A stretch of 64,000 bases of DNA from Patescibacteria group bacterium (GCA_041662625.1 JBAZSB010000001.1:681385-745384), one strand, 5' to 3'. Counted from the first letter of the stretch, positions 38,034 to 64,000 are shown. Notes: generated by a model from the letters alone, not told the origin. Program-made: numbers and translations.

Positions 38034-38082
38034 AACCGAGTCCTCCCTGGTTGTACAGCTTTTTAATTTAACACTTTTTAAA

Positions 38083-38103
38083 TTTTATTGTCAATAAAAA
38101 AAG
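38083..38103. repeat. TTTTATTGTCAATAAAAAAAG boundary motif copy 2
   Basis: Between GC-rich blocks A and B. Confidence 0.6.
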
Positions 38104-38487
38104 ACTCCCACAAGAGGAGCCAAGGGCCAGGGTACAATTTCGAAACGAGAAGCCAGAAGCGGCTTCTAGTAAACACCCACGATGTTCGAACCGCCAACCA
38201 TCGCGCGAGTAGGACATTGGCCAAAACTGATTTCCTCGCCACTGGCCAGTCCGATCGAACGAAGGGTTGACGGGTAGCCAGGGACAATGTCCCGATGCCT
38301 TACTACAACGGGGCGGGCCGAAGGAAAGCCAATCTCTTTGCGACAGCAAAGCGTGATCGGGGCGCCAACAGCGACCCGTTTCAGAAATTCAATCACATCC
38401 TCAGTCATCATTTCACAAAACATGGGCTAAGCCCTCCATAGTCCACCTCAGCCTAGTTGCTGAAGTTTGCTTATTATATCTTATTGT

Positions 38488-40250: not shown

Positions 40251-40323
40251 GGTGGCCATGGTGAAATGGTTATCACTAGAGTTTGTGGCACTCTCGTTAC
40301 GGGTTCGATTCCCGTTGGCCACC
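40251..40323 (+). tRNA. tRNA-His (anticodon GTG) with G-1
   Basis: G-1 + GTGGCCA acceptor, D arm GTGA-AATGGTTA-TCAC, anticodon loop TTGTGGC, T arm ACGGG-TTCGATT-CCCGT, 3' TGGCCAC + discriminator C. Confidence 0.8.
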
Positions 40324-41925: not shown

Positions 41926-42334
41926 ATTTTTTGTTTACTTTAATCGCACCAAACATTAAAAGGATAAGGGTTAAATAAACCAGAAACGGCACAAGCATTG
42001 TTAAAAAATTTATTACTCCAAATTCCTTTAGAACTGTTAGATTAAAAGAATCTAAAGTGGTTAAATAAAAGTCCAAGCCGGCAGTGGCTAAAAATACGAG
42101 AATAAAAAGCCAGCTGAAAGCTCTAAAAATTCTACCTAAAATAATTTTGTTGGTCTTGCTAGTGAAATAAAACAAGGTTAATGGCATGAACACCAGAAAT
42201 ATAAAATAAGAATAATACCAAAGCAAAAAATAAAGATGGCCGAAATTGTAATCGTCTTTAGTAAAACCAAAAATCCAACAAACTGCTATGACTAATAAGA
42301 TTGATAGACCTTGTAAGTGTAATTTTTCAGACAT
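41900..42334 (-). CDS. hypothetical small polytopic membrane protein (island cargo)
   Basis: 144 aa; 4 predicted TM; AT-rich codon usage. Confidence 0.4.
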   Translation of the reverse strand: MSEKLHLQGLSILLVIAVCWIFGFTKDDYNFGHLYFLLWYYSYFIFLVFMPLTLFYFTSKTNKIILGRIFRAFSWLFILVFLATAGLDFYLTTLDSFNLTVLKEFGVINFLTMLVPFLVYLTLILLMFGAIKVNKKYEGQLGQN

Positions 42335-42351
42335 ACTTTTAGGATTATTAA

Positions 42352-42882
42352 TTATAGATCACCGGTTAAAAAATGTAGTATAAAGTATGACAAAATTATT
42401 CCGGCGGGTATTATAAAATAAATAGCTGATTCAATGATTCTTTTGATTGACCGCCTTCTACCATCACTCATCTTTGTTGATTTTTCATCTACTTTCATAT
42501 CTGCATAAATAAGCCCACCAAACAAAAAACTAAAAATAGCAGTGCCAATACCAATTCTAATAAAAAGACCCTTGGTTTCTGTCCCTACCGGACTGTAAAT
42601 AGGATCACCCCATTCTATACATTCCCTATCAGGACCATTACCCCCGGACATAATACATGGTATTTCTTTAAGATACTTTCCGTCTGGTGTTATATTGCCA
42701 AGTATATTGAGTGCAAAAAAGACGAAGAATAAAGTAGCCCAAATAATTAACCAATACCCTATGGTATATTTCGGCACTTCTTTTGATGATGAGGCGCGAG
42801 GTAATTTCATATTTTTATTTTGGTGAGCCACTATAAAGCCCCCACCAGTTTTAAGGACCGAAGTCCTTCCATGCGCAAACAC
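42352..42882 (-). CDS. hypothetical membrane protein (island cargo)
   Basis: 176 aa; true start probably the internal MKLPRASSS; 12-bp perfect inverted repeat CATGCGCAAACA/TGTTTGCGCATG overlaps the annotated start. Confidence 0.4.
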   Translation of the reverse strand: MFAHGRTSVLKTGGGFIVAHQNKNMKLPRASSSKEVPKYTIGYWLIIWATLFFVFFALNILGNITPDGKYLKEIPCIMSGGNGPDRECIEWGDPIYSPVGTETKGLFIRIGIGTAIFSFLFGGLIYADMKVDEKSTKMSDGRRRSIKRIIESAIYFIIPAGIILSYFILHFLTGDL

Positions 42883-43062
42883 GGCCTGATGAGGGCATCA
42901 TAAATGTTTGCGCATGGTATTGAGTTATGCTTTAATTTTAGCTCTGCTTAGGGGGTTTGTAAAGATCAAAAGTTAATTTTTATATACAGAATTGGGGTAG
43001 TGCCAGTATCTAAAATCATTTTTTGAAAAATCTAGGAGTCACTCTTACATATAAAAATTTAT

Positions 43063-43674
43063 TTAACATCCTCCCTCCCTAGCTATTGTCTTAAAATTGC
43101 CATCAATTATATCGTCCTTTCTGAGATTACCGGAACGAGCGGCTAAAGCCAGCAGACTTAAAGCGGTTCTGTTTGAATTGCCATCCAGCTCTTTTATTTT
43201 TAAAGTTATTAGCTCATGTCTGTCTTTTGCTTCCATGCTTTTGAAAAGCCACGTCATTGCCTGATTAGTTGAAATCTCATCCGGCTTGGCCAATGCTTCG
43301 GCTAATTTTAATTCGCCTAGCTCTAAAGATTTTTTATAGATCGCTTGCCTTACTACTTCTTCATCTATGGCTTTATCGTCAGCCAACTGTAAAATCTTTC
43401 TTACCTTAAGTCGCTGATCTGCGTCGTATTTGCGAAAAAATCGGTAGCACGTCATATAACCCGCCTTACCCTTGAGTCGCGGTTCAATCTGAGCAAAATA
43501 TTGCTGGTGCATTTGCTGAAGCGAAAGCTTGCCTTTTTGTTCCTCGTAAACCTCAACTAGCTTCTCCATAAAAGGAGATGAGGCAATAATTGATTGAGAG
43601 TTTATAAGCTTCATGGTTGTAAATTCAGTGTTAAATAGGTGTAATTGATCTTGGGCCGCGTAATTCTTAAACAA
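43063..43674 (-). CDS. hypothetical protein (moderately GC-rich, island cargo)
   Basis: 203 aa helical protein; no motif recognised. Confidence 0.35.
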   Translation of the reverse strand: MFKNYAAQDQLHLFNTEFTTMKLINSQSIIASSPFMEKLVEVYEEQKGKLSLQQMHQQYFAQIEPRLKGKAGYMTCYRFFRKYDADQRLKVRKILQLADDKAIDEEVVRQAIYKKSLELGELKLAEALAKPDEISTNQAMTWLFKSMEAKDRHELITLKIKELDGNSNRTALSLLALAARSGNLRKDDIIDGNFKTIAREGGC

Positions 43675-43801
43675 GCTTGTTTCTGACTTACTTTAGGGCT
43701 TACCAAGATGATTCAGGCGAAACTAATGGAGTAAAATGAGTTGACTAATGCCGGTCCGGGATGACTCCTGCTCTTATTTCTGATTATATGGATCAAAACT
43801 T

Positions 43802-43972
43802 CTTAGGATGATAAAAATCCAAATATTTATTAAGTATGTCATCGGCAATGTGAGACTCCGGTTTTTTAAATTTAAAAGCCACTCTTCTTAGCTTCTCTTT
43901 GGTTGCAAGCGTAATTCTAACGTGCTGGGTATGTAAATTTGCGGAGTTAATTTTCTTAGTCATATTAAGTAA
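43802..43972 (-). CDS. possible ribbon-helix-helix (CopG/Arc-like) small DNA-binding protein
   Basis: Not in ORF track (56 aa): MTKKINSANLHTQHVRITLATKEKLRRVAFKFKKPESHIADDILNKYLDFYHPK; the HVRITLATKEKLRRVA beta-strand/helix pattern is typical of RHH regulators. Confidence 0.3.
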
Positions 43973-44208
43973 CTTGTTACCTTGTAGCCATCAGCGACTT
44001 CTATGGGCCAATAACACTCAAATGCTTTTTAAGGAATATTATCATCGTTTAAAGAATAGATTGTAAAATTTTGGCGATGGCCGATCCCAAATTTTACAGG
44101 GTTGATACTGGGCAAATTGGCCACCCGGTCGAGAAGTCGCTACTCGTTGCCGGGATTTAATCTGCCCACTATCTTGCGTCGAGTTTTGTCTGAGCATCAC
44201 GCAAAAGC

Positions 44209-44397
44209 TCAGCTATTCTCATTGTTAAAATTTTGTTTTGGTATTGGTCTATAAATAACCCTAAACAGGTTAACTAAATTATTTGCCATTTCTAAAGCCT
44301 CCTGCTCAGTAATTTCCTGATCAAATTCCTGCTTATAAGCAGTTTGGAATTTTCGGATCATTGTTTGTTTATCCTGCGGAGACATAAAAACGGCCAT
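44209..44397 (-). CDS. small hypothetical protein
   Basis: 62 aa, helical, no family. Confidence 0.25.
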   Translation of the reverse strand: MAVFMSPQDKQTMIRKFQTAYKQEFDQEITEQEALEMANNLVNLFRVIYRPIPKQNFNNENS

Positions 44398-44714
44398 TTA
44401 CTGTTTTGGCCGTTTGCTATTTGTTTAATTTAAATCCCCGGCGGAAGACAAAGAAAATAGCACAAACGCTGCCAATTGACAGTTAATGCACTTCTCTTTG
44501 ACTTCAGACCGGGGTGTGTCTAACTCATTAGTCCATCCCGTATTGCCTCCCTATACCTTTTCAGCTAGGGCCAGAATATGGGGGTGGTGGATTCTTGCTA
44601 GGGGTGTCCCGCGTAAACCCGAAAAGTAATATTTATTTTTGAATTAACTAAAATTATTGTAGCACCACATAATTGGCTGTCAATAGATTTTTTCGCAATT
44701 TTAGAGTGGCAAAG

Positions 44715-44808
44715 GATTGACAAATACAGACTGTGGAATGTTCACTTCGTTGCTAATTAAAGGGGAAATTCAGGGGTGCAATGGGTTGACAAATAACCTG
44801 TGGATAAG
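44715..44808 (+). promoter_or_regulatory. tandem direct repeats G(G/A)TTGACAAATA-N-CTGTGGA(A/T) upstream of the 519-aa island gene (promoter/operator candidates)
   Basis: Two copies about 68 bp apart (44715-44740; 44783-44808), each with a TTGACA hexamer; additional ATTGACAGTTAA at 44476 and 46398. Confidence 0.4.
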
Positions 44809-44849
44809 CTTGATTTAAACCTAGATTAAAACTATGCTTAAAAAGGAAT

Positions 44850-46409
44850 ATGCAAAATCAAGATGTATTCGAATTATACAAACCATTAAGAAATCATCTA
44901 AGACAAATTGATCTTTATGGATCTTTTTATACTATTTGGAATTATAGCCAACATCTATTATCCAACAAAAAATTCCCCAACGATGTCTTAGTTGCACCAG
45001 AATTTCTATCTTTAGATCAAATAGGAAAAATGAGGATGGTCTCTCTTTGGGAATTAGAAACATTATGTAAGGAAATAATAATAAACTCTCAAGAAGTGGA
45101 GGGGAAAAAAACATTAAAAAATTGGGAGTATTTCGCTAATGCAATAAATAAATTAAAAAAATTAGAAAATGATATTAGCGGAAAATTTGTAGATAAAAAT
45201 AATATATTATTGGAGATGCACAGAATTGCCCATAGACAATTTCCATGGCAGGCTGAAAAACCAGCGGCTATATCAATGACAAGATATTATAAAATTTTTA
45301 ATTATGAACCAATAAGTGAAATTATTAAAAAGGTGACTAATCTGTCTACCCAAGAATTATATATAATCGCAACGGCCTTATTTGGTCTCTACGAAAATAA
45401 ATTCACATTATTTTATCCCACCAAAATAGAAATAAAAGGAATATCAATAAAAAATTTTGACTACTTTTTAAACCATTTTTGCTGCGATATAAAAACACTT
45501 AAGGAAAAATTACTAAAAGAGCAAGAAATCAATGAAAAATTTGCTTACGCTTTCGGATCCTTAAGAGCCTATCCGATAATAAAAATGGCCATTCCTTCTG
45601 GTAAAGATGGCTTAGTGTGTCCACTACCAACATTACTGTTTTGGCGATTAACTAATGGCATCTATTATGAAATTTTTCGACAAAAGGATTTCGATAACTA
45701 TTTTGGTTTTTCTTTCCAGACATATGTTGGAGAGGTTATTAAAAAAGCTACCTATAATAAAAAGATAAAATACTATGCTGAAGAACAATATAGGATCGGA
45801 AAGGAACTAAAAGATACGATCGATTGGATAGTTGCAGATGAAGAAGGAACTTTGTTTATTGAGTGTAAAACAAAACGAATGACTTTCGGCGCCAAAACTG
45901 AGATAAATTCCATGGATGAACTGGAAAAAGAGCTAGATAAAGCGGCTGAATTTATATTACAAGTTTACAAAGCAATTAAAGATTGTTTGGACAATAAGTA
46001 TCCATCGTATAAACACAGATCTAATAAGAATATATTTCCCTTAATCGTTACATTGGAAGATTGGTATCTATTTGGTGATCTCACCTTAGAAAAATTAAAT
46101 GAAAAAATCAAAATTATGCTAAGTAATCACAAGATACCGACATCATGGTTAGATGATTACCCATATTCGATATGCTCCGTGTCAGAATTTGAAAAAATCA
46201 CACAAGTAATCCAACTTATAGATATTAAGGAATTTATGAGTAAAAAAGTTTTTGATCAAGACTGTAAAAAATGGAACTTTAGTCCATTTATCGGCAGTAA
46301 ATTCTCAGAAATAAACAACAAAATAAAATTCTTATTTCCCGAAGATTTTGATAGAATTTTCCCTCGACATTTGAGAGGAGATCAAAAAATTACACAAATT
46401 GACAGTTAA
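44850..46409 (+). CDS. hypothetical protein with PD-(D/E)xK nuclease-like motif (island cargo)
   Basis: 519 aa, AT-rich; ...DTIDWIVADEEGTLFIECKTKRMTF... fits hhhD-x(9)-ExK of restriction-endonuclease-fold nucleases; rest unassigned. Confidence 0.35.
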   Translation: MQNQDVFELYKPLRNHLRQIDLYGSFYTIWNYSQHLLSNKKFPNDVLVAPEFLSLDQIGKMRMVSLWELETLCKEIIINSQEVEGKKTLKNWEYFANAINKLKKLENDISGKFVDKNNILLEMHRIAHRQFPWQAEKPAAISMTRYYKIFNYEPISEIIKKVTNLSTQELYIIATALFGLYENKFTLFYPTKIEIKGISIKNFDYFLNHFCCDIKTLKEKLLKEQEINEKFAYAFGSLRAYPIIKMAIPSGKDGLVCPLPTLLFWRLTNGIYYEIFRQKDFDNYFGFSFQTYVGEVIKKATYNKKIKYYAEEQYRIGKELKDTIDWIVADEEGTLFIECKTKRMTFGAKTEINSMDELEKELDKAAEFILQVYKAIKDCLDNKYPSYKHRSNKNIFPLIVTLEDWYLFGDLTLEKLNEKIKIMLSNHKIPTSWLDDYPYSICSVSEFEKITQVIQLIDIKEFMSKKVFDQDCKKWNFSPFIGSKFSEINNKIKFLFPEDFDRIFPRHLRGDQKITQIDS

Positions 46410-46435
46410 CTGTAAAAGGTAGAATATAAAATTGT

Positions 46436-46891
46436 ATGAAAAAACTAATCAACATAGCGCTTTTTCTTTTATTATTTTGGCCGTTAGCCAGCTTGGCTCA
46501 TCCCGGCCGAACTGATGCTTATGGCTGTCATACCTGCCGGACAAATTGTCCATCATGGGGTTTAGATTATGATGAATACCACTGTCATAATACAAAGGCT
46601 TTACCACAACCAGAAGAACCAATCAAAAGCACTTACGGAGCTGGCGGCACAGGTTATACAGATCCAGCACCAGAATACAAAAAACCAGCACCTATTGAAA
46701 ACAATATCAATCCTAATGTAAATATCAATTCAGAAACTAATAGTAATAAAAACAATTTCCTCAATCAAAAAGTATTAGGAACAGAATATAATGAACCATC
46801 CTCCAAAGAAGATGATAATAATTGGCTTGGCTGGATTATTGGCCTAGGTGCTGCTGGCGCTGGAGGGTATTGGCTGACGAAAAAAAAATAA
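46436..46891 (+). CDS. YHYH-domain protein with signal peptide and C-terminal Gly-rich membrane anchor
   Basis: 151 aa; ...HPGRTDAYGCHTCRTNCPSWGLDYDEYHCH... matches the YHYH motif family; C-terminal GLGAAGAGGYWLTKKK. Confidence 0.55.
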   Translation: MKKLINIALFLLLFWPLASLAHPGRTDAYGCHTCRTNCPSWGLDYDEYHCHNTKALPQPEEPIKSTYGAGGTGYTDPAPEYKKPAPIENNINPNVNINSETNSNKNNFLNQKVLGTEYNEPSSKEDDNNWLGWIIGLGAAGAGGYWLTKKK

Positions 46892-46892
46892 T

Positions 46893-47873
46893 ATGTCTAA
46901 GATAAAAAAAGAAATTTACAATCTAGAATTTCCTCCTTACGTTAGCCAGCTAGAGATTGGGGGGTATATTTTTAAACGAATTGATAATTATAATCAGTTA
47001 ATAACCGAGTTACAACACTTTGTTAATATTTCCGGCTCTGAAAACCCGATTCAACCTAACACTGGGAAACATATGATTACTGCGACCGTATCTATACCTG
47101 AGAACGAAATAAAATGTTGTCTTCCTTGGACAGATCCAAATAGCACTCAAATTCTAGATGTATTATTTCTTTTAACAATATTTACTGGAAGAAGTGTTTT
47201 TGTTAAAGAATGGGAAGGCGATGCCCCAATTATCGCTGATCATCGCATACATCAATGGGGAGGCCAACTGCAGTGTTCCATTAAATATGAAGGTATGTGG
47301 AGGCACAAAGATACCGGAGAGATAAAGACGGAGCAAGAAATGGAAAAAAGTAAAATACCAATTTTTGATTATGATCATATAGATATTGGATTTGAAAAAA
47401 GTTTAAACAAAATACTAACGCTCATCTCAAATCCAGAATGGCAAGAAAAATATTCCGGTGGCTACTTCCTTTTTTTATTTAGAGACGCCACATTTAGACA
47501 AATACTAGAAAAATCGTTCCTAACTTGTTGGACAATATGGGAACAGATATTTTCCATTGAAAATTCCAAATGGCTGCCAGATGAAGAAATTTTTAGATTG
47601 GGGGGCGATAGAAAAATTGCCTATATTTTGAATAAATATTTTAATAAAAAAATAGATAAACGAGCATTGGCAAATATCAAACAACTTGCTAAATCAAGAA
47701 ATCGACTAGTGCATTTCGGCAAAAAGACTAATGACGTAACAAACGAGGAAAAAGAAATGTTTATTAGACTAACTGAACAGCTTATTGCATTGATATTAGG
47801 ATTAGAACCATCCAATATATTTAATTCTCTGGAAAAATTAAATAGTTTTCTAAATAAACAGCCGCATTGCTAA
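46893..47873 (+). CDS. hypothetical protein with C-terminal HEPN-like domain (canonical R-N-x-x-x-H motif)
   Basis: 326 aa; start 2 nt after the YHYH gene stop (coupled); ...ANIKQLAKSRNRLVHFGKK... gives RNxxxH in a helical C-terminal about 100 aa. Confidence 0.4.
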   Translation: MSKIKKEIYNLEFPPYVSQLEIGGYIFKRIDNYNQLITELQHFVNISGSENPIQPNTGKHMITATVSIPENEIKCCLPWTDPNSTQILDVLFLLTIFTGRSVFVKEWEGDAPIIADHRIHQWGGQLQCSIKYEGMWRHKDTGEIKTEQEMEKSKIPIFDYDHIDIGFEKSLNKILTLISNPEWQEKYSGGYFLFLFRDATFRQILEKSFLTCWTIWEQIFSIENSKWLPDEEIFRLGGDRKIAYILNKYFNKKIDKRALANIKQLAKSRNRLVHFGKKTNDVTNEEKEMFIRLTEQLIALILGLEPSNIFNSLEKLNSFLNKQPHC

Positions 47874-47973
47874 TATTAGTAGTTAATCTAAATAATATCT
47901 GGTTTTAGTATCAAATTTATTTAGCTAAAAAAATAAATATAAAATTAAAATATTAAAATAGACATGCAAAATT

Positions 47974-48627
47974 ATGTCCATGGGTATTGTTCTAATATTT
48001 CCTGGCGGTGTATTCTTGGCAGCCGATGGTCGCCAAAGTAATCCTATTAGGGGCAACAAACTAATTAGTGATAGCGTATCTAAAATAGAAAAAATTGATT
48101 CTAAACTTTTTATAATCCATTTAGGTATCTCTCAAGCCTCTAGTGTATCAGCTAAAGATTTCGCCAAAAGATATAAACTAAACGATGACCCGGAAAAACT
48201 AAAAACAAAACTTGAGACAAGCGTATCGATTGGTCTTCATAGTATAATACCTAGACTAAGCCCAGATATAGATATCCATAATCCAGCTATTAAAAGTATT
48301 CTTCTTCTGGGTGGGATCGCCCAACAAACCTCGTTTATTGCCGGAGCGCTTTACGGTATTGATAACAAATCGACAATCTGCGAAACTAGCTGCTACAAAA
48401 ATATTGTTCTAGGCGGAGAAGAATTGAACGCGAATACTTTTTTCAACAAAAAGTGTGAAGAATTGATTCATGGCCAAATATCAACTGATGAATTAGTGCA
48501 AAAACTAATAAATGCATCACGGGACACCATAAGAATGGCGGAAAAAAAAGATAAAAGGATTGGTGGAAAAATTAGCTATGCTGTAGCACAAATAAATGGT
48601 CCCACGATATTTAATACAATAAAATAA
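47974..48627 (+). CDS. hypothetical protein with proteasome-beta/HslV-like (Ntn-hydrolase) N-terminal pattern
   Basis: 217 aa; MSMGIVLIFPGGVFLAADGRQSNPIRGNKLISDSVSKIEKIDSKLFIIHLG parallels TTIVG..GVV.AAD.R.T.G..V.D...KI..I....CC.AG of proteasome beta subunits, but lacks the N-terminal Thr. Confidence 0.3.
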   Translation: MSMGIVLIFPGGVFLAADGRQSNPIRGNKLISDSVSKIEKIDSKLFIIHLGISQASSVSAKDFAKRYKLNDDPEKLKTKLETSVSIGLHSIIPRLSPDIDIHNPAIKSILLLGGIAQQTSFIAGALYGIDNKSTICETSCYKNIVLGGEELNANTFFNKKCEELIHGQISTDELVQKLINASRDTIRMAEKKDKRIGGKISYAVAQINGPTIFNTIK

Positions 48628-48642
48628 TAACGTGACTCTGCT

Positions 48643-49083
48643 ATGTCTTTTACTAGCCATATATATCAGATAAAATTTTCAGGATCAAGAATGCCTGAAA
48701 AAATTTTATTGTTTGAAAGCAATAAAATAATTATTGATTTTAACAAATTAAAACCTGACGATTACAGTTTTAAATTTGGTAGCTATTTCGGCACCAGTTT
48801 TGCACAAAAAATAATTACCATTAAAGACCCTAAATATATAACCAATGATAAATCCCCCAACAAAAAATTTTACCCCATATCAATTCTACATGAAATAGGT
48901 CATTCCAAACTACACAAAAGTCCTCCAAACAAAAAACCAGTGGGGCTTATAAAATACGAGATGGAAGCATGGGAATATGCGCTTGAAGAGATAAAAGACA
49001 AAAAACTAAAATATAATGCCGAGGAACTCCAAAAATTCATTTCAAAATGTCTTAAATCTTATATAAAAAATAATCACGCTTAG
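48643..49083 (+). CDS. ImmA/IrrE-family zinc metallopeptidase (HEIGH...E.EAW.YA)
   Basis: 146 aa; ...PISILHEIGHSKLH... then about 25 aa later ...YEMEAWEYALEEI..., matching the ImmA/IrrE HExxH...ExEANxFA signature. Confidence 0.6.
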   Translation: MSFTSHIYQIKFSGSRMPEKILLFESNKIIIDFNKLKPDDYSFKFGSYFGTSFAQKIITIKDPKYITNDKSPNKKFYPISILHEIGHSKLHKSPPNKKPVGLIKYEMEAWEYALEEIKDKKLKYNAEELQKFISKCLKSYIKNNHA

Positions 49084-49124
49084 TAAAACAAATCTTTAAC
49101 TCCTTAATTATCTCTGCTAAATAA

Positions 49125-49151
49125 GTTCTAACGTCGTCCCTTTCCCGACCC
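49125..49151. repeat. 27-nt direct repeat GTTCTAACGTCGTCCCT(T/C)TCCCGACCC, copy a
   Basis: 26/27 identical to 50342-50368; the pair brackets the GC-rich hydrolase gene. Confidence 0.75.
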
Positions 49152-49189
49152 TTTTGCGCCTTACCCTATTAACCCACTTTGGCGGCGGG

Positions 49190-49273
49190 TGGCACTCTCG
49201 TTACGGGTTCTCCGCCACATTATTAAATCAGAAAAGGCGGATCCGCCTTCGGCGGAGATTCCCGTAGGCCACC
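49190..49273 (+). pseudogene. tRNA-His 3'-portion copy interrupted in the T-loop by the 46-nt GC hairpin element (right att-like junction of island)
   Basis: GTGGCACTCTCGTTACGGGTTC + [49211-49256 insert] + GATTCCCGTAGGCCACC; matches tRNA-His 40285-40322 apart from the insert and one substitution. Confidence 0.7.
49211..49256. repeat. 46-47 nt GC-rich hairpin element copy 2
   Basis: TCCGCCACATTATTAAATCAGAAAAGGCGGATCCGCCTTCGGCGGA; see copy 1 at 39994-40040. Confidence 0.7.
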
Positions 49274-49411: not shown

Positions 49412-50221
49412 TTAGTCAGCCTCCGCCCATTGCCTGACAGATTCGGTAATTAACCGTTTCATCTCCGCCTGTTGGTCGGGCTCAGCGTAACTATGCTCAG
49501 CCCCGATCACAACTTGGACTTCGGTCCCAAGAACCGCGGCCAATCTACGGCTCTGGTCAATCGGCACGCAAGTGTCCTTCTCACCGTGGATGATCAGGGT
49601 GGAGCAACGGATGCCGGCTGACATACGCATCGTGTCATATGACTGAAGATCGACCCAGTAGTCGTAACTCAGGTCATACTCCACGATGTCATGATTATCA
49701 TGCAGGGTTCCCTGCTCTTGCCATTCCCTAATCTGTGTATTACCCAGCCGTTCTTGCCAGAAGCGTATTGGTTCAGTCACAGGGGACTTCAGGATCAGCC
49801 GTTCAACGGTCGGATCTTGGGCAGCCACAACCAGTGAGACTAGCCCGCCAAAGCTGGCACCGAGCAAGGCAATATGGTATTGCCCAATTCCTCGTAAATA
49901 AGCAATCACGGCGTTCAGACTGGCAACAGCCTTAGTCAGGGTAACATCGGCTGATACAGCGTATCCACTTGTGTGGCCGTAGAGCGGACCATGGCCGTAG
50001 TAGTCATACCGAACGGTTCCGATGCTCAAACGGTTAAACTCCCCCTGAAACTCTTTGTAGAGTCCGCTGTCTCCGCTTGAGGTAAATCCATGCGACATAA
50101 CAACAACTGCCCGGGCATCAGTCGGAATTGAGACGATCGTGCGCACAGGATTACCCGCCGAGTCATAAAGCACCATTGTTTCCTCTATACACATTAGACG
50201 ATTCCTCCCTTCGCTAGACAA
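49412..50221 (-). CDS. alpha/beta-hydrolase fold protein (GxSxG; dienelactone hydrolase/S9-like), GC-rich cassette
   Basis: 269 aa; nucleophile elbow LLGASFGGLV, ...HGEKDTCVP..., ...GAEHSY...; about 53% GC; RBS AAGGGAGG. Confidence 0.7.
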   Translation of the reverse strand: MSSEGRNRLMCIEETMVLYDSAGNPVRTIVSIPTDARAVVVMSHGFTSSGDSGLYKEFQGEFNRLSIGTVRYDYYGHGPLYGHTSGYAVSADVTLTKAVASLNAVIAYLRGIGQYHIALLGASFGGLVSLVVAAQDPTVERLILKSPVTEPIRFWQERLGNTQIREWQEQGTLHDNHDIVEYDLSYDYWVDLQSYDTMRMSAGIRCSTLIIHGEKDTCVPIDQSRRLAAVLGTEVQVVIGAEHSYAEPDQQAEMKRLITESVRQWAEAD

Positions 50222-56358: not shown

Positions 56359-57279
56359 ATGCAAGCTCAAACTTACCTATTCATCTTATTTAGTACTGTT
56401 GTCATCGGCTTCCTCGCCGTTGATCTTGGCTATTTCAACCGAAAAAGCCACAAAATCGAATTTAAGCCGGCTTTGTGGCAATCAATGTTTTGGATTGGGA
56501 TTTCTATTGCTTTTGCTTTTTTGGTTTTTCTGTTTATGAGTCGGGAGCTGGCCGCGGAATTTCTGAGCGCTTATGTAACGGAAAAAATGCTTTCAGTAGA
56601 CAATTTATTTGTGATAATGCTGATTTTCAGTTATTTCAAACTGGAAGAAAAATATCACCACCGGGCGCTGTTTTGGGGGATTTTGGGTGCGATTGTTTTC
56701 CGTGGTGTTTTTATCAGCGCCGGCGCTTATTTGGTTCACCAATTTTATTGGATACTATATATCTTCGGAATAATTTTGATTTATACCGGGGCCAAACTTC
56801 TAACCGGTAAAAAAGAAGAACATATTGATTTTGAAAAAAATAAAGTCATTAGACTTGCCAAAAAAATACTGCCGCTGACAACCACTTATCACAACGGAAA
56901 ATTCTTTTTGAAAGAAAAAGGTAAATTATATTTTACCTCATTGTTTCTAACTGTACTACTGGTAGAAACTTCCGACATAATCTTTGCCGTTGACTCTATC
57001 CCGGCTGTATTTTCGATTTCCCAAAATTTATTTATTGTTTTTACTTCCAATATTTTTGCCGTGATGGGACTTCGGGCGCTATTTTTCTTAATTCAGAATG
57101 TATTGCATCTGTTCCATCATCTGCAAAAAGGTTTGGCAATTATTTTATTTTTTATCGGCCTAAAAATGCTTTCCGGAATTATTGGAATCCATATTTCCTC
57201 ACTTATATCTTTTAGTGTTATTATGCTGATTTTAAGTTCATCAATAATACTTTCGGTATATTTTCCGAAAAAAATATAA
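56359..57279 (+). CDS. terC: TerC-family integral membrane protein (putative Mn/metal efflux)
   Basis: 306 aa; ...LAVDLGYFNRKSHKIEFK..., ...EKMLSVDNLFVIMLIF... conserved TerC blocks. Confidence 0.8.
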   Translation: MQAQTYLFILFSTVVIGFLAVDLGYFNRKSHKIEFKPALWQSMFWIGISIAFAFLVFLFMSRELAAEFLSAYVTEKMLSVDNLFVIMLIFSYFKLEEKYHHRALFWGILGAIVFRGVFISAGAYLVHQFYWILYIFGIILIYTGAKLLTGKKEEHIDFEKNKVIRLAKKILPLTTTYHNGKFFLKEKGKLYFTSLFLTVLLVETSDIIFAVDSIPAVFSISQNLFIVFTSNIFAVMGLRALFFLIQNVLHLFHHLQKGLAIILFFIGLKMLSGIIGIHISSLISFSVIMLILSSSIILSVYFPKKI

Positions 57280-57323
57280 ATACTTACCGTGCCGAAGCTC
57301 AAAGTAGAATTAGACTATGCCAT

Positions 57324-57347
57324 AAATCGCCCAAAAGGCGATTTTTT
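57324..57347 (+). terminator. ATCGCC-CAAAA-GGCGAT + T6 hairpin terminator (family copy 2)
   Basis: After terC; followed by TTGCTATAAT promoter-like sequence. Confidence 0.6.
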
Positions 57348-57404
57348 GCTATAATTGCTAGTAGGGTGACTATATAATAGCAAATTAATTAATAACTTAA
57401 ACCT

Positions 57405-57884
57405 ATGAAAATTTATGCTGTTGTAATTACTATCATCGCTGTCTTAGCACTAATTTTAGCCGGCTACTTATTTTGGCAGATGACGGCTATCCAGACTAAC
57501 TTAAACCAAGCCCAAGAGCAACAAAGGCAAGCTAATGATGAACTAACCCAGGTTAAAACTGAGTTAAGCCAAACTAAGGATGAATTGAATAAGGTCCGGG
57601 AACTTATTGATACCGGTCTAACCACGGCCAAAGAGAACTCCGACATTTTAAAAAATTCCCTGGAAACTTTCTTAGTGGCTGGCGATTTGAAAATCTTTAC
57701 CATCAGCGAAACCGAAGCCCAAGCAATAACCGATAAAATCCAAAGCCTTTCAGACAAAATGGACAAAGTCGGCTTGGAAAAAGCCTGGTCTGATTTTTTG
57801 AAAAGCCAAAAAATCACTGATTATTTTGCCTTTGCCCGAGCGGCAGCTTCAAATATCAACGGCAAATTACAAAACATCCATTAG
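57405..57884 (+). CDS. membrane-anchored coiled-coil protein
   Basis: 159 aa; N-terminal TM, Q/E/L-rich heptads. Confidence 0.45.
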   Translation: MKIYAVVITIIAVLALILAGYLFWQMTAIQTNLNQAQEQQRQANDELTQVKTELSQTKDELNKVRELIDTGLTTAKENSDILKNSLETFLVAGDLKIFTISETEAQAITDKIQSLSDKMDKVGLEKAWSDFLKSQKITDYFAFARAAASNINGKLQNIH

Positions 57885-57888
57885 AAAA

Positions 57889-58572
57889 ATGAAAGGATTT
57901 AATCTCAAATATCTCGCTTTGATTATTATAATTCTCTTGCTAGTTTTAATTATATTTTTAGTGACAGCAACAAAAAATAGTAGCCCATCAACAGAAGGAC
58001 AAAATAACTCAATTGCAACCAATAATAATAGTTTACCAGTACCAGCAGAAAATTTGTCGGCAAAAAACCAAAAGACTATTGCCGAACCAATCAGCAATGC
58101 TTTGGCGCGAGTAACCAAAAAACCTTTTGGTATTTATGTTTCACCTACTGACTCGCCGGTTAGCCCAGAGAAGTTTACCGGCTATCATGCCGGTGTTGAT
58201 TTTGAAACTTTCAGCGATGAACAGAATTCGGAAGTGGCAATTTATGTCATTTGTTCTGGCCCTTTAGTTTTAAAAAAATCTGCCACTGGCTATGGTGGCG
58301 TGGCAGTCCAGCAATGTCAGATTAACGGCAAGGACGTAACCGTAATTTATGGCCACCTGCGTTTAAATAGCATTACTGCCATACAGGACCAGCTGTTGAA
58401 TGTGGGTGAACAACTTGGCATCTTAGGTAAAGGTTATAGCCCAGAAACTAGTGATGAAAGAAAACATCTGCATTTAGGCATTCATCAAGGCAAAAATATC
58501 AATTTGCTGGGTTATGTCCAAAATCAAGAAGAACTAAGCCAATGGCTTGACGTAACTAATCTCTTAAAATAA
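57889..58572 (+). CDS. M23-family metallopeptidase (membrane anchored)
   Basis: ORF track starts at 57826, but the likely start is MKGFNLKYL at 57889 (TM anchor). ...GYHAGVDFE... and ...HLHLGIH... M23 HxxxD / HxH motifs. Confidence 0.6.
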   Translation: MKGFNLKYLALIIIILLLVLIIFLVTATKNSSPSTEGQNNSIATNNNSLPVPAENLSAKNQKTIAEPISNALARVTKKPFGIYVSPTDSPVSPEKFTGYHAGVDFETFSDEQNSEVAIYVICSGPLVLKKSATGYGGVAVQQCQINGKDVTVIYGHLRLNSITAIQDQLLNVGEQLGILGKGYSPETSDERKHLHLGIHQGKNINLLGYVQNQEELSQWLDVTNLLK

Positions 58573-58591
58573 CAGGATTGATAAGCTACAA

Positions 58592-58616
58592 AAATCGCCG
58601 AAAAGGCGATTTTTTG
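58592..58616 (+). terminator. ATCGCC-GAAAA-GGCGAT + T6 hairpin terminator (family copy 3)
   Basis: After the M23 peptidase gene. Confidence 0.6.
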
Positions 58617-58796
58617 CTTTGGTGAAATTAGATATTCAAATCTCATTGAAATCAACAGCCCGACCAATATTGGTAATAACAGAGGTATTGACATCTTTAA
58701 TGTAAAGTGATAACCTGCACGCATCTTTTCGTACGAAAGGATCCCTACTAGTGGGAGGGTAGACCCTTAGGAAAGTAGACAAGGAGGTTACGCGTA

Positions 58797-59609
58797 ATGA
58801 AGACGAAAATGTTGGTGGTGTTGGCGGTAGCGGTAGTGGTTATGGCTCATGTCGTCCCAGCGGGGGCGGATAACATTACCATGTGGGACGGCTACGGACC
58901 CCTGGGTCTGGGTCCAGGTGGCGAGTGGGCCGAGGTCGAACCGGACTGTTTCCCCGGCTGGGGTTGGGATTTGATAGGAGTCGCGGCGACTGCTCCTGCT
59001 GAGCCAGGTGACCCCTGGCAGATAACGTTTGCGGGCGGATATAACTTCGCCGCCGGCAACGGTGATATCGAATCCGGAGATATATTCCTTGCATTCAGCG
59101 AGGATGGCCCCCTGGACAACCCCGGTGATAGTGGGAGTTGGGGGTACGATATGGTCCTAGATATGGACTGGTCAGGGGATATGCCGTCAGGATCGCCTAT
59201 TCCGTTCAATATCATCGACATCAGCAGCGATCTTGTTGATCTGTTGCTGGTCGGTGAATCGATCAACCATCCTTGGGCCGACCCCTATAGATGGTCGAGT
59301 GGCGGCACTGTTGTCGGATCCGGCAGCGCATCATTCCAGGTCTATGACAACGCTGCTGAATTGGAGGCTGCTTTTCCCGGCGACTTCGAAGGCGCCAATA
59401 GTCTGATTGGCGACGTAACGCTATACACCTTGTCCTTTGAATTCTCGCCCCAAGAGGACAGCGTTCTTTGGACGCACTTCACGATGGAGTGCGGAAACGA
59501 TATTCTCCTCGGCCGGACCGAGTTTCCGGCCGTGCCAGAACCGAGCACGATTTCGTTGCTCTTCATGGGCTGCCTGGGATTGGTACTGAGGAAGCGCCCA
59601 CGGGTGTGA
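58797..59609 (+). CDS. PEP-CTERM sorting-signal protein, strongly GC-rich (about 58% GC)
   Basis: 270 aa; signal peptide; G/D/P-rich body; C-terminal ...FPAVPEPSTISLLFMGCLGLVLRKRPRV = VPEP + TM + basic tail; TTGACA-N17-TAACCT and AAGGAGG upstream. Confidence 0.7.
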   Translation: MKTKMLVVLAVAVVVMAHVVPAGADNITMWDGYGPLGLGPGGEWAEVEPDCFPGWGWDLIGVAATAPAEPGDPWQITFAGGYNFAAGNGDIESGDIFLAFSEDGPLDNPGDSGSWGYDMVLDMDWSGDMPSGSPIPFNIIDISSDLVDLLLVGESINHPWADPYRWSSGGTVVGSGSASFQVYDNAAELEAAFPGDFEGANSLIGDVTLYTLSFEFSPQEDSVLWTHFTMECGNDILLGRTEFPAVPEPSTISLLFMGCLGLVLRKRPRV

Positions 59610-59751
59610 CCGAAAAAGAAACAAGGAGGGAAAACTAACAGAAAACAATGGGCCGGGGTCTTGGACTTCGGCTCTTTTTTTATTCTCCTTAATTAAAAGG
59701 ATGATTTGACATGACTCAATTTATCAGTCAATAAAACAATATAAATCTAAA

Positions 59752-59786
59752 CAAAAAAGTGCAGAGAAATATCTGCACCTTTTTGT
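59752..59786. terminator. bidirectional hairpin terminator (GTGCAGA-GAAATAT-TCTGCAC flanked by A6 / T5)
   Basis: Between convergent PEP-CTERM gene and the 59800..60264 gene. Confidence 0.55.
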
Positions 59787-59799
59787 TATTCAAAACTTT

Positions 59800-60264
59800 C
59801 TATTGAGCTGGGGGCGGAGTTTGGGCCGGAGCTTGAGTCGGCGAGTTTGGCCGGACTTGAATAGACTGGGCTGTGATACTGCCATCACTGTTGGCCGTGC
59901 CAGTAGCCATCACCGATTCGCCAAGTGTCAAATCAGCTGCGGTGCTAGTAGCCATTTTACCAATTATAGTTGAGCTGGAATAAAAGATAATTTTTGAACC
60001 GCCATCTGGCAATTTCACGGTAATACTTTTATCATCCTGACTGATAATTTCACCCGTTGCCAAACCATTATTACCTGAGCCGCCATTTAGCTGCATCCGC
60101 GCCTGCCGCTGTTCAGAAGTTAAATCTTGAAATCGCCCGCCCGAAGGACCAGCTGACTTACTTTTGCCATAAAGCAGGCCGCCATAAAATGATCCGCCCG
60201 CAACTACTAATAAAGCAACAGCGATACCAATAATTGTATTTGTGTTTTTCATAGTTTTTATCAT
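59800..60264 (-). CDS. secreted hypothetical protein (signal peptide, PT/Q-rich tail)
   Basis: 154 aa; N-terminal TM/signal, ...ITVKLPDGGSKIIFYSSSTIIGK... beta-rich core. Confidence 0.4.
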   Translation of the reverse strand: MIKTMKNTNTIIGIAVALLVVAGGSFYGGLLYGKSKSAGPSGGRFQDLTSEQRQARMQLNGGSGNNGLATGEIISQDDKSITVKLPDGGSKIIFYSSSTIIGKMATSTAADLTLGESVMATGTANSDGSITAQSIQVRPNSPTQAPAQTPPPAQ

Positions 60265-60343
60265 GAATTAAAAATTAGGGAACTAGGAAGTTAGGAGGTT
60301 AGAAGATAAAACCTAATTCCTAATTTCCTAACCTCCTAACTTT

Positions 60344-61570
60344 CTATTCGTATCTTAAAGCTTCAATCGGATTAAGTTTAGCCGCCCGCCGGGCTGGATA
60401 ATAACCAAAGACAATACCAATTGCCGCTGATACGCCAACCGCCAAAAAAACTGACCAGCTGGTAACGGTCGTGGTTGTCCCACCAAATTTAGTTATTAAA
60501 ATAGCGGAAATCCAGCCAAGTAATATACCAACAATGCCGCCAATAAAAGTTAAGGCCACTGATTCAGCTAAAAATTGAATGCTAATATCACGATTTTTCG
60601 CACCCAATGATTTTCTTAAACCGATTTCCCGGGTTCTTTCCGTAACAGTGGTTAACATCATATTCATAATGCCAATACCACCGACTAACAAAGAAATTCC
60701 CGCAATCGCGCCCAAAAGTAAAGTTAGCGTGTCGCTGACCGACGACATCGCGTTTAAAACATCGGCCTGATTAACAATGCTGAAATCGGCGCTCGTGGAA
60801 TCAGAAATACTATGTCTGATTAAAAGCAAGCTGGTTATCTGCTCCTGGGCCGCTGTCATTAAATCTTCTTGAGTTATCTGAACATTAATGTTACTGACGG
60901 ATTTACTGCCGGTTAAATATTGCTGGGCCGTGGAAATCGGAATATAAATTAAATCATCAGCGCTGCCAAAGCCGGTGCCGCCCTTGCTTTTGGTAACACC
61001 AATAATAGTGAACTCTAAAGTGTCAATACGAATTTTTTGCCCAACCGGATTGGTGCCTTCGCCAAACAAATCATCGCGGGTAGTCGGGCCTAAAACAGCA
61101 ACTTTTGATGTTGCCTTAATGTGCTCGCTGGTAATAAAATTCCCCGTTTCAACCTCAATGCTTTTAATTACTTGATAAGAAGTATCAATGCCATAAATAC
61201 TGGTATTGGTATTTGTCCCCTTGGTCGTTTTAACCTGCTTGCGGCTGGAAACTGTCGGCGCAATGACATCAATATTGGCAATTTGCTCTTTAATCGCCTC
61301 GGCATCTTCTAAAGTCAACGTAGTCGCTGATCCCATTCCGCCCTGCACCATTGTCCCCACTCCCTGTTGTGATCCCGGTGAAATAACCAATAAATTAGTG
61401 CCTAAAGACTGAATATTTTTTTGAATACTGACCGCTGTGCCTTGGCCGATAGAAATCATGGCAATTACTGAACCAATGCCAATTACTATTCCTAGGATAG
61501 TTAAAAACGATCGGGATTTATTAGCCGATAAAGCAAAATAGGTTTCTTTAAATAAATCAGATAAAAGCAT
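60344..61570 (-). CDS. ABC transporter permease, FtsX/MacB-like
   Basis: 408 aa; N-terminal TM, large periplasmic domain, C-terminal 3 TM FtsX domain. Confidence 0.8.
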   Translation of the reverse strand: MLLSDLFKETYFALSANKSRSFLTILGIVIGIGSVIAMISIGQGTAVSIQKNIQSLGTNLLVISPGSQQGVGTMVQGGMGSATTLTLEDAEAIKEQIANIDVIAPTVSSRKQVKTTKGTNTNTSIYGIDTSYQVIKSIEVETGNFITSEHIKATSKVAVLGPTTRDDLFGEGTNPVGQKIRIDTLEFTIIGVTKSKGGTGFGSADDLIYIPISTAQQYLTGSKSVSNINVQITQEDLMTAAQEQITSLLLIRHSISDSTSADFSIVNQADVLNAMSSVSDTLTLLLGAIAGISLLVGGIGIMNMMLTTVTERTREIGLRKSLGAKNRDISIQFLAESVALTFIGGIVGILLGWISAILITKFGGTTTTVTSWSVFLAVGVSAAIGIVFGYYPARRAAKLNPIEALRYE

Positions 61571-61571
61571 A

Positions 61572-62276
61572 TTATTTATCCTTTAATAAACCAGCACTTG
61601 GCCGGTCGGCAAAAATCATTCCGTCTTTTATTTCAATCACCCGATCCGCGTGCTCAGCCACATATTTTTCATGGGTAATTAAAATAATCGTATGGCCCTT
61701 TTCGCGGTTTAATTTCTGAAAGGTCTCTAAAACGATATCACCGGTTTTTGAATCTAAATTGCCAGTCGGCTCATCGGCCAAAATTAAATCCGGATCATTA
61801 ACCAATGCCCGGGCAATGGCCACGCGCTGCATTTGTCCGCCGGACAATTGATTTGAGAGGTGATGCCAACGATTTTTTTCCAGTCCAGCGGCAATCAAAG
61901 CCGCTTCAGCTTTTTTTTGCCGTTCAGCCTTGGGAATTTTTTTATCATAAATTAAGGGAACAATTACATTTCTTAAAACCGTGGTTCGGGAAAGCAGATT
62001 AAATGACTGAAAAACAAAACCAATCTTTTGAGAACGAATTTCCGCCAATTCGTCATCTGATAGTTTAAGCATGTCTTTACCGTTAAGAAAATAACTCCCG
62101 CTGGTCGGACGATCCAAGGCGCCTAAAATATGCATTAAAGTTGACTTACCCGAACCCGATGGCCCGACAATCGCCATAAATTCACCTTTTTTGATCTGAA
62201 AAGAAACCTCTTTTAGCACCTTAGTCTCAATATCGCCAGTCTGATAAATTTTTGTTATTTTTTCACACTTAATCAT
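61572..62276 (-). CDS. ABC transporter ATP-binding protein (MacB/LolD-like)
   Basis: 234 aa; Walker [10 protein letters not shown], signature [15 protein letters not shown], Walker [12 protein letters not shown]. Confidence 0.9.
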
Positions 62277-62278
62277 AT

Positions 62279-64000
62279 TTAACTGGGAGGTTTGCCGCCA
62301 CCGCCGCCATTTAGTTGCATCATACCTCTCATCGCATCATTATTTGACTTATTAGTATTAGCACTGCTACTGCTACTGCCACTTATTGTCTGGGTAATAA
62401 CTTGATCACCTTCAACCAGACCATCAGTAATTTCAATCATCGTATCATTACTTATACCAGTAGTTACTGTTTTTTGCTGCTTTTGGCCATCAACTAAAAC
62501 TTCGACATAGCTGCTCTCCCCTGCTGTTTTAACCGCACTGGCAGAAACAACTAAAACATCTTGTTTAGAATCGGTTATAATATTGGCACTTAGACTCATG
62601 CCTGATTTAATTCTTTCATCTTGGACATCAAAAGCAATTTTAATACCATAGCTGACAACACCGGAAGAAACGGCGCCTAAGGTATCAATTTCAATCACCT
62701 CACCGCTAATTGACAAGTCTTCAACGGCATCAAAAGTTAAGGTAGCTTTTTGTCCGACTTTAACTTTGGCAGCATCAATTTCATTAAGAGTAATTTCCGC
62801 TATTTTTTTGGTGGTAATCAAAGTTGCCACCGCTGTTCCAGAAGAAACCGCCGCGCCTTTTTCCAAACTAAGCTCCGCGATAACGCCATCAAATGGCGCC
62901 CGGATAGAATAATCAGCTAATTTTTGCCGGGCGTCCAAAAGAGAATTTTCTTTTTGTTGAATACTAATCTCCTGCGATTTAATATCTAAAGGATCAGTCC
63001 CAGCTAAAAGATCCTCCAAAGTCTGCTCTTGTTCTTGGATAGTGCGTTCGGCATTAATAATATCTTCCTTGGCGTTATCAATAGCAGTTTTGCTGCTAAA
63101 AAGATCGGAAAGAAGGCTGTTGGTTGTACCGGTATAAGTTTCAAGGTTACTTTGATGAGTTGCTGTTTTTGTCGGAATGGTTACACTTTCCTTAGATAAA
63201 GTATCTTCAAAAATATCAATCAAATTTTTAGTGTCTTTAATAGTTTCAGCGACGTCTTTAGTAGTCTCATAGGTCTGATTAATAAGTTCTTCAATAACTT
63301 CATTACTTGAATAACGACTGGCACTTTTATAATTTCCAAGGTTCTGTTCATAACTATCCCGGGCCACTATATAGCTGGCTTTGGCTTTATCGGCATACAC
63401 GGTACCTTGACTATTGTCATCATACTGATTAGTCCGGGTTTTATAATAATCAATATTCCACTGGCTATCGGAAAAATCATTGCCATAAACAACATCTTCA
63501 AGACCCGCCATTAAATTTGGCAGGTCTAAAAAAGCATTGGCAATATTATTAAATCCATCTTCATAAGCTTTATTTAAATCATCTTCGGCATTAGGTTTAG
63601 CTTCCTTCGCTTGGTCCAAGGCATTTTGGGCTTTAGTAATTTCCAGTTCGTCAGCTGGCTGATTTAATTTTTCCAAGGAAAGTTTGGCACTTTCCAGGTT
63701 GGATTGAGCATCGCGAACGGATTTTAAAGCTTCAGTCGCATCTAACTGAGCAATCAGCTGACCGGTTTTAACTTCTTGGCCTTTCTCTACACTAATTGAT
63801 ATTACCTTACCCGAGGCCTCAGGATTTATGTCGACCTGATTAAGAGCGGAAACTTGGCCGGTGCCGGAAATCGAGACGATAATGTTCCCTTTTTCCACTG
63901 CAGCAGTAACGTAGCTTGTCTCTTGCTGACTGCTGCCCCGAAGTTTTGTAAACCCAAAATAGCCGCCGGCTGCTAGTGCTAGGATAACTATTGTCAGAAT
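62279..64000 (-). CDS. HlyD/MacA-family periplasmic adaptor (membrane fusion protein), 5' end beyond window
   Basis: Track start MEKGN is internal; the reading frame continues upstream to the window edge, encoding a TM helix (ILTIVILALAAGGYFGF...); coiled-coil and beta-barrel regions; ends in G-rich tail. Confidence 0.75.
   Translation of the reverse strand: MLTIVILALAAGGYFGFTKLRGSSQQETSYVTAAVEKGNIIVSISGTGQVSALNQVDINPEASGKVISISVEKGQEVKTGQLIAQLDATEALKSVRDAQSNLESAKLSLEKLNQPADELEITKAQNALDQAKEAKPNAEDDLNKAYEDGFNNIANAFLDLPNLMAGLEDVVYGNDFSDSQWNIDYYKTRTNQYDDNSQGTVYADKAKASYIVARDSYEQNLGNYKSASRYSSNEVIEELINQTYETTKDVAETIKDTKNLIDIFEDTLSKESVTIPTKTATHQSNLETYTGTTNSLLSDLFSSKTAIDNAKEDIINAERTIQEQEQTLEDLLAGTDPLDIKSQEISIQQKENSLLDARQKLADYSIRAPFDGVIAELSLEKGAAVSSGTAVATLITTKKIAEITLNEIDAAKVKVGQKATLTFDAVEDLSISGEVIEIDTLGAVSSGVVSYGIKIAFDVQDERIKSGMSLSANIITDSKQDVLVVSASAVKTAGESSYVEVLVDGQKQQKTVTTGISNDTMIEITDGLVEGDQVITQTISGSSSSSANTNKSNNDAMRGMMQLNGGGGGKPPS

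Follow-up and report, generated by a model that had tools for sequence, protein, structure and literature searches.

In this work, a stretch of 64,000 nucleotides from a Patescibacteria group bacterium (GCA_041662625.1 JBAZSB010000001.1:681385-745384; hereafter the window) was analysed around one gene, which encodes a protein with a C-terminal PEP-CTERM sorting domain and lies in a GC-rich island in AT-rich DNA. An initial annotation, made from the sequence alone, had offered three explanations for this gene: a recent horizontal acquisition, a chimeric assembly, or an exosortase system encoded elsewhere in the genome. Our results strongly support horizontal acquisition. We consider it probable (about 0.72) that a cassette of ~1 kb was recently transferred from an exosortase-bearing bacterium with an outer membrane and ~55-60% GC, and that the gene is now an orphan in a member of the Candidate Phyla Radiation (CPR).

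The composition of the gene is foreign to its surroundings. The sole open reading frame (ORF) of the region, whose coordinates are given in Table 1 with those of the other features, has a GC content of 56.8% compared with 38.8% for the remaining window, a small correction to the earlier figures of about 58% and 37%. Among the 54 curated ORFs of the window it ranks first in GC (z = 3.0; 38.7 ± 6.0% for the other 53). By codon position its GC is 59.4, 47.2 and 63.8%, and the last of these values, GC3, gives z = 3.4 against a mean of 36.3 ± 8.1% in the other ORFs. In a profile of 60-nt windows, GC climbs from 0.35-0.38 to at least 0.47 at ~58700 and drops to 0.25 from 59680 onward, which places the edges of the island at ~58700-59685. 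Such an excess is not intrinsic to the protein family, because gene GC tracks flank GC where the family is native. We fetched 80 metagenome loci of the family and used the 54 that have at least 1 kb of flank; in these, gene GC ranged from 27% to 64%, following genome GC, and gene minus flank GC was -0.012 ± 0.043 with a maximum of +0.071, compared with +0.18 for the window gene. Two native loci, L004 and L005, were read in detail. Both have 59-60% GC with a gene of 57%, and the first encodes an outer membrane efflux protein (OEP) of the TolC type, while the second has a sigma-54 activator and Bac_transf beside the gene. From these neighbours, the native contexts of the family appear to be those of bacteria with an outer membrane. 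Codon usage, a check that the initial annotation had suggested, sides with the same two loci: the log-likelihood ratio toward their genes over host genes is +0.15 per codon, and the host ORFs have -0.79 ± 0.30 with a maximum of 0.03.

The translation signal is also of a foreign style. The perfect Shine-Dalgarno (SD) sequence reported earlier is present as AAGGAGGT (58781-58788), which is 8 nt long, ends 8 nt ahead of the ATG, and is the longest SD match in the window. An SD of at least 5 nt precedes just 6 of the 54 window ORFs, and host upstream regions are AT-rich; the few cases are concentrated in ORFs of at least 50% GC (3/5, compared with 3/49 of the others; Fisher p = 0.007). It was reported in a survey that the anti-SD is missing in part of the Parcubacteria (PMC9297842), and the rarity of SDs in the host genes fits such a loss, in a window that holds no rRNA gene. 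Since SDs are rare in the window and enriched in its GC-rich ORFs, and in view of the reported anti-SD losses, the SD of the PEP-CTERM gene looks like a relic of the donor. Moreover, no homologue of the protein was found in the closest relative (L090), nor in 80 CPR loci that surround the MacB cluster lying next to the gene in the window. In L090, the DEAD, TerC and M23 genes are 80-87% identical to those of the window at the DNA level, and homology stops at the M23 stop codon. L090 does not serve as a clean empty site, as it is rearranged downstream of M23, so all it shows is that the gene is missing and where homology ends. PEP-CTERM genes are mostly single-gene operons with their own upstream region (Haft et al., PMC1569441), a habit that fits transfer as a self-contained unit. 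The abrupt step in GC and codon usage within one transcription unit, the absence from relatives and the foreign translation signals are shared with known single-gene islands of horizontal transfer. The insertion differs from a tRNA-His element elsewhere in the window in that no integrase, tRNA or repeat is seen at it. Together, the foreign composition, the family GC control, the SD and the absence from relatives support the recent horizontal acquisition proposed at the outset.

The protein has the three-part architecture of a PEP-CTERM protein, with the signal peptide and the sorting signal first described. The signal peptide, MKTKMLVVLAVAVVVMAHVVPAGA, has n, h and c regions readable from the sequence, with predicted cleavage after AGA and before DN. 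In an AlphaFold2 (AF2) model, a helix at residues 2-17 lies within it, and an aligned N-terminal hydrophobic segment is common to all family members in an alignment of the family (A1). The C-terminal tail consists of VPEP, the transmembrane (TM) helix STISLLFMGCLGLVL and the basic RKRPRV, and AF2 again places a helix at 249-265. This sorting signal, described earlier as VPEP-TM-RKRPR, is recognised by TIGR02595 on aa 246-269 of 270 with 26.8 bits (cutoff 16), and PF07589 is marginally below its cutoff (20.0 versus 20.7 bits). In A1, none of P247, E248 and P249 varies; in a second alignment (A2), this is true of P249, and the other two are at least 90% conserved. The ORF has all 25 invariant columns of A1. 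Between the signal peptide and the tail lies an ectodomain in which acidic residues are conserved and the family motif HFTMECGND (aa 227-235) stands just ahead of the tail. The AF2 model, built from 68 family sequences (predicted local distance difference test, pLDDT, 79.7; predicted template modelling score, pTM, 0.79), shows the N-terminal helix, a beta-sandwich of ~12 strands and the C-terminal helix. The ectodomain has no sequence match in Pfam, NCBIfam or the PDB, and Foldseek of the model against the PDB found nothing.

The protein belongs to a large family that is unannotated. A word-indexed search gave 11 homologues with 30-38% identity, to which phmmer returned E values of 5.6e-16 to 2.0e-4, most of them spanning 83-100% of the query. 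When 1.84 billion cluster representatives were searched with the profile, 4009 passed a threshold of E ≤ 1e-3 and 672 one of E ≤ 1e-30, and the cluster representative of the window protein (P0001) scores 274 bits against the family profile. Identity of the window protein to any family member is about 30-39%; in the BLAST comparison that the initial annotation had called for, nothing outside its own 90% cluster exceeds ~35% among ~15 billion proteins. Family members have ~250-290 aa and form ~4000 clusters at 50% identity, and 150/161 of those sampled end in a tail containing PEP or PDP. Thus, the HFTMECGND ectodomain defines a large PEP-CTERM family with neither a Pfam or NCBIfam model nor a PDB counterpart. 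None of the named PEP-CTERM subfamilies in NCBIfam (PepA, XDP1, EDSAP-1, THxN, NF038129 and others) scores above its curated cutoff; the best reach 11-18 bits against cutoffs of 50-125, and their alignments cover only the tail or the last 65 residues. PepA (NF033554), XDP1 (NF041927), EDSAP-1 (NF041538) and THxN (NF038125) are of like size (~250-300 aa) and share the layout of signal peptide, single domain and PEP-CTERM tail. However, the tail alone aligns to these four, with 12-18 bits against cutoffs of 80-125, and the ectodomain of the window protein represents a separate large family. The gene product itself is already annotated by NCBI, for the same organism, as a 'PEP-CTERM sorting domain-containing protein'.

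The host is confirmed as a CPR (Patescibacteria) bacterium, in agreement with its first description as CPR-like. An NCBI entry on a 922,082-bp contig, labelled 'MAG: Patescibacteria group bacterium' (locus tag WC675_03685; MAG, metagenome-assembled genome), is identical to the neighbouring M23 protein, and the adjacent MacB has 73-75% identity to MAGs of Magasanikbacteria, Kuenenbacteria and other Patescibacteria. The remaining MacB matches mostly have CPR or unclassified-MAG labels, and in a few the label is evidently misapplied, e.g. 'Gammaproteobacteria' or 'Nanoarchaeia'. The PEP-CTERM gene occupies the intergenic spacer between the M23 peptidase gene and a DUF5666-MacB-ABC-HlyD cluster. 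The ORFs scanned in the window yielded no outer-membrane marker; the window also encodes a Wzy_C protein.

PEP-CTERM proteins are tied to species with an outer membrane, exopolysaccharide (EPS) genes and the exosortase EpsH (Haft 2006, PMC1569441), so the premise that the gene is unexpected here agrees with the literature. Where the system is present, the median number of PEP-CTERM proteins per genome is eight, and the system has been linked to the formation of EPS and flocs (PMC1569441). Among 63 window ORFs scanned with Pfam no exosortase was found, as had been stated, and the annotation of a further 5.6 kb outside the window includes none either. A C-terminal hidden Markov model (HMM) and a regular expression were run in six frames over ~1.3 Mb of CPR DNA, made up of L090, the window and ~1.2 Mb from the 80 CPR loci. 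Two PEP-CTERM tails resulted, both GC-rich: the window gene, whose tail is the only one in the 64 kb, and a gene of another CPR locus (L055). No tail of host composition was found in this DNA. The window gene shares with the PEP-CTERM/EpsH system (PMC1569441) the signal peptide, the C-terminal PEP motif with TM helix and basic cluster, the organisation as a single gene that has a leader and a terminator to itself, and a diverse, uncharacterised ectodomain. It differs in its Patescibacteria host, in the lack of any outer-membrane sign in the window, in its foreign composition, in being a single copy in the window where system genomes have eight as a median, and in having no EpsH, PrsK, PrsR, PrsT or sigma-54 promoter nearby. 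The LPXTG/sortase system of monoderm bacteria follows an analogous logic of motif, TM helix and basic tail and is the kind expected in a single-membrane organism. However, the motif here is VPEP, and no sortase is seen in the window. The gene is likely an orphan. We found no literature that links PEP-CTERM or exosortase to CPR biology.

Candidate control signals lie on both sides of the ORF. On the left, the upstream M23 gene ends in a terminator hairpin with a perfect 10-nt inverted repeat (AAAAATCGCC/GGCGATTTTT) and a 5-nt loop. The gene had been credited with its own sigma-70-like promoter, and this claim is weak, holding only in part: there is a perfect -35 (TTGACA, 58688-58693), a 17-nt spacer and a TG upstream of the -10, but the -10 itself (TAACCT) is weak, matching 3/6 positions, and a consensus promoter scan did not call the candidate. 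It sits in host-like AT-rich DNA at the left edge of the GC rise, and transcription of the gene from it appears possible. A sigma-54 promoter with PrsK/PrsR regulation is a feature of the system in Proteobacteria only (Haft 2006). No match to TGGCACG-N4-TTGCW within 3 mismatches occurs in 57692-60213, no sigma-54 activator is encoded in the window, and window-wide counts of the motif are at chance, so a promoter of this type was rejected. An E-value scan with Rfam over the leader and the 3' region gave nothing near any gathering score, and a riboswitch or known RNA around the gene was rejected. Four palindromic hexamers at 58730-58795 (CGTACG, GGATCC, ACTAGT and ACGCGT, the sites of BsiWI, BamHI, SpeI and MluI; 1.4 expected) look engineered, but such a cluster is not significant (shuffle p ~0.06, 95th percentile of the window). 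Furthermore, tblastn against PLSDB and INPHARED gave no match to a plasmid or phage vector, and two distant matches in very large IMG/VR contigs are uninformative. On the right, the terminator of the island has an 11-bp stem with 7 G-C pairs followed by a T run, and beyond it lies the terminator of the convergent DUF5666 gene, a 16-nt inverted repeat that is 94% complementary and is called on the plus strand too. A search for target-site duplications or terminal repeats round the island gave solely short repeats at chance level, such as the 9-nt ACAAGGAGG at 58779 and 59621, which is expected by chance in 1.4 kb.

We hypothesize that the transferred cassette comprised the leader with its SD, the one ORF and its own terminator, and that it came from a bacterium of ~55-60% GC with an outer membrane and an exosortase. 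Its product would be a Sec-exported beta-sandwich protein of the large uncharacterised family described above. In native hosts, an exosortase would recognise the tail and, after cleavage at the PEP motif, pass the protein on, following Haft (2006). The present host most likely lacks the cognate exosortase. Should the protein be produced here, export and removal of the signal peptide would leave it anchored in the cytoplasmic membrane by its C-terminal helix. The helix and the basic tail would then act as a stop-transfer anchor, with the tail inside and the beta-sandwich on the outer face, and the outcome would be a type-I surface protein and not an exosortase product.

Two rival explanations of the high GC find little support. 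The abrupt GC step at both ends and the source of the sequence, a metagenome-assembled genome, would suit an assembly chimera or contamination. The junctions, however, are real: two Logan contigs from different runs (SRR18595301 and SRR6484324, spanning window positions 56625-60680 and 57943-60413) are 100% identical to the window through both of them, and an ENA MEGAHIT contig from a third sample (ERZ27249449) has 99.986% identity over 14,732 bp, with only two mismatches, at 53442 (A/G) and 53935 (G/A), neither of them in the island. All three come from samples and assemblers other than those of the window, and host DNA flanks the segment on both sides within single contigs. These three independent assemblies with the same junctions refute a chimera, which retains a negligible probability. 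Alternatively, the gene could be native and owe its high GC to amino-acid composition or to expression-linked codon bias, as Gly, Pro, Ala and Asp are abundant in the protein and the first codon positions of the gene have 59% GC. Yet GC3, which is independent of amino-acid content, is 64% compared with 36% in the host, low-GC genomes carry low-GC genes of the same family (down to 27%) with a flank excess that never exceeds 0.071, and neither the 80 related CPR loci nor the closest relative has the gene. We regard this origin as very improbable.

The fate of the gene after its arrival is a closer matter. It may be a neutral, unexpressed passenger, that is, DNA from a neighbour or host that has not yet decayed and is without function in the CPR cell. 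As its composition shows no amelioration, little time has elapsed; the SD is probably useless where the host genes lack one; the -10 of the candidate promoter is poor; there is a hairpin in the leader; and other GC-rich ORFs in the window suggest that uptake is frequent. On the other hand, the ORF, the SD and the terminator are intact, and the perfect -35 with the TG-extended -10 could drive some transcription. The same sequence recurs in at least three samples, although the population is nearly clonal across them, so this recurrence is little informative and yields no signal of selection. On balance, a passenger is a possibility that we take seriously, if only tentatively. A working PEP-CTERM system, in which the protein is the processed substrate of an exosortase encoded outside the window, is in our view rather improbable. 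The PEP-CTERM domain does score in full, the ORF keeps all invariant residues, and PEP-CTERM genes also occur on two other Patescibacteria-like contigs. Exosortase-family proteins such as XrtG occur in some monoderm bacteria. Against such a system stand the lack of an exosortase among the scanned ORFs and in the 5.6-kb flank, the single tail in the window where a median of eight is reported, the lack of host-composition tails in ~1.3 Mb, the foreign GC of all three CPR examples and the literature, in which we found no link to CPR biology.

Several points also weigh against the recent transfer of an orphan cassette that we prefer. The exosortase search covered about 70 kb of a 922-kb genome, a scope that leaves room for an enzyme encoded elsewhere. 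No close donor was found, the best identity being that of ~35% given above, and we infer the donor lineage from composition and distant homologues alone; look-ups of the clusters of 20 homologues or neighbouring proteins gave no organism names for it. The search for an empty site in a near-identical genome gave none, so the edges of the island are those of the GC profiles, and no target-site duplication or mobile-element gene was found flanking it. Finally, the intact ORF, with every family-invariant residue kept, could mean that selection maintains the gene and hence that it has a function here.

The window gene is not the only one of its kind. A 115-kb contig labelled Saccharibacteria (L055, CAZQYV010000002.1; 39.4% GC), which has the HlyD-ABC-MacB-DUF5666 cluster, carries a PEP-CTERM ORF that encodes a signal peptide, scores 27.6 bits with TIGR02595 and has a GC-rich terminator of its own. 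The ectodomain of its product shows no relation to that of the window protein. A further gene, P0290, lies on a contig of 41.9% GC (L091), the BipA of which shares 66% identity with its counterpart in a Patescibacteria MAG. P0290 is 42-45% identical to the L055 protein, the genomic context differs, and other members of this second family are found in contexts of 57-62% GC. GC-rich PEP-CTERM islands of a single gene are thus present on at least three Patescibacteria-like contigs, and their ectodomains belong to two unrelated families. This recurrence could reflect frequent DNA uptake from PEP-CTERM-rich donors, or it could reflect retention for a purpose. It is conceivable, though unlikely, that Patescibacteria repeatedly capture, in intact form, and then keep PEP-CTERM surface-protein genes of the outer-membrane bacteria on or beside which they live. 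If so, the captured proteins would serve the episymbiont, e.g. by anchoring it in the EPS or floc matrix of its host or by mimicking host surface proteins, or else an unrecognised CPR enzyme would handle the PEP-CTERM signal, and such genes would be molecular tracers of the hosts of uncultured CPR bacteria. Taken alone, the window gene is an ordinary horizontally acquired gene that already has its label at NCBI. An intact copy in a CPR genome is nevertheless an exception to the reported restriction to genomes with outer membrane, EPS and exosortase (PMC1569441). Moreover, un-ameliorated genes of a family restricted to exosortase bacteria point to the type of partner with which this uncultured episymbiont exchanges DNA, and for the Patescibacteria of groundwater and sediment the identity of the host is a central question. 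The recurrence raises the question of whether CPR genomes systematically carry orphan PEP-CTERM genes, and whether any of them has an exosortase.

Table 1. Features of the PEP-CTERM gene, its island and flanks (window coordinates unless a locus is named), with the PEP-CTERM genes of two other CPR-like contigs.
Feature	Position	Strand	Description or basis
M23 peptidase gene	57889-58572		upstream host gene
Terminator hairpin of upstream M23 peptidase gene	58590-58614	+	AT-rich host DNA left of the island
Candidate sigma-70-type promoter	58688-58716	+	-35 TTGACA, 17-nt spacer, TG-n-TAACCT
GC-richer 5' leader	58717-58796	+	palindromic hairpin (58723-58742) and SD
PEP-CTERM protein gene (NCBI MFA6255106.1)	58797-59609	+	270 aa, 56.8% GC
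Predicted signal peptide, aa 1-24 (MKTKMLVVLAVAVVVMAHVVPAGA)	58797-58868	+	n/h/c regions from the sequence
Uncharacterised beta-sandwich ectodomain, aa 25-244	58869-59528	+	alignments A1 and A2; AF2
PEP-CTERM sorting domain, aa 245-270	59529-59606	+	VPEP, TM helix STISLLFMGCLGLVL, basic RKRPRV
GC-rich intrinsic terminator, right end of island	59650-59684	+	stem 59650-59674, T run
Terminator of convergent DUF5666 gene	59750-59787	-	host DNA right of the island
DUF5666 protein gene	59800-60264	-	convergent host gene
L055 PEP-CTERM ORF	L055:16842-17555	- (locus orientation)	237 aa, 54.7% GC
L091 PEP-CTERM gene (P0290)	L091:4290-4952		Logan SRR30545106; 58.1% GC

Some further features of the window were observed. 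The cluster to the right of the island (59800-63898) consists of an HlyD-family membrane fusion protein, an ABC ATPase, a MacB permease and the small DUF5666 protein, and it is kept in most of the 80 CPR loci (L007-L086). The counterpart cluster in the native locus L004 ends in the TolC-type OEP where the CPR cluster has DUF5666, so DUF5666 may be the partner of the pump in a single-membrane organism. Four other ORFs of the window have 50-53% GC, namely a sulfotransferase (7430-8308), two unknowns beside a XerC-like integrase and tRNA genes (37554-38033 and 38068-38349) and an alpha/beta hydrolase (49412-50221). Two of these four are likewise preceded by an SD, and they are probably further horizontally acquired genes. 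Inside tRNA-His there is one copy of a 22-bp exact direct repeat, GTGGCACTCTCGTTACGGGTTC (40285-40306), with a second copy at 49189-49210. The repeats bracket a block of 8.9 kb with 34.9% GC, which contains ORFs without Pfam matches and a large serine recombinase at 40297-41925 on the minus strand. Judging from this arrangement, the block 40285-49210 looks like an integrated mobile element with its attachment (att) sites.

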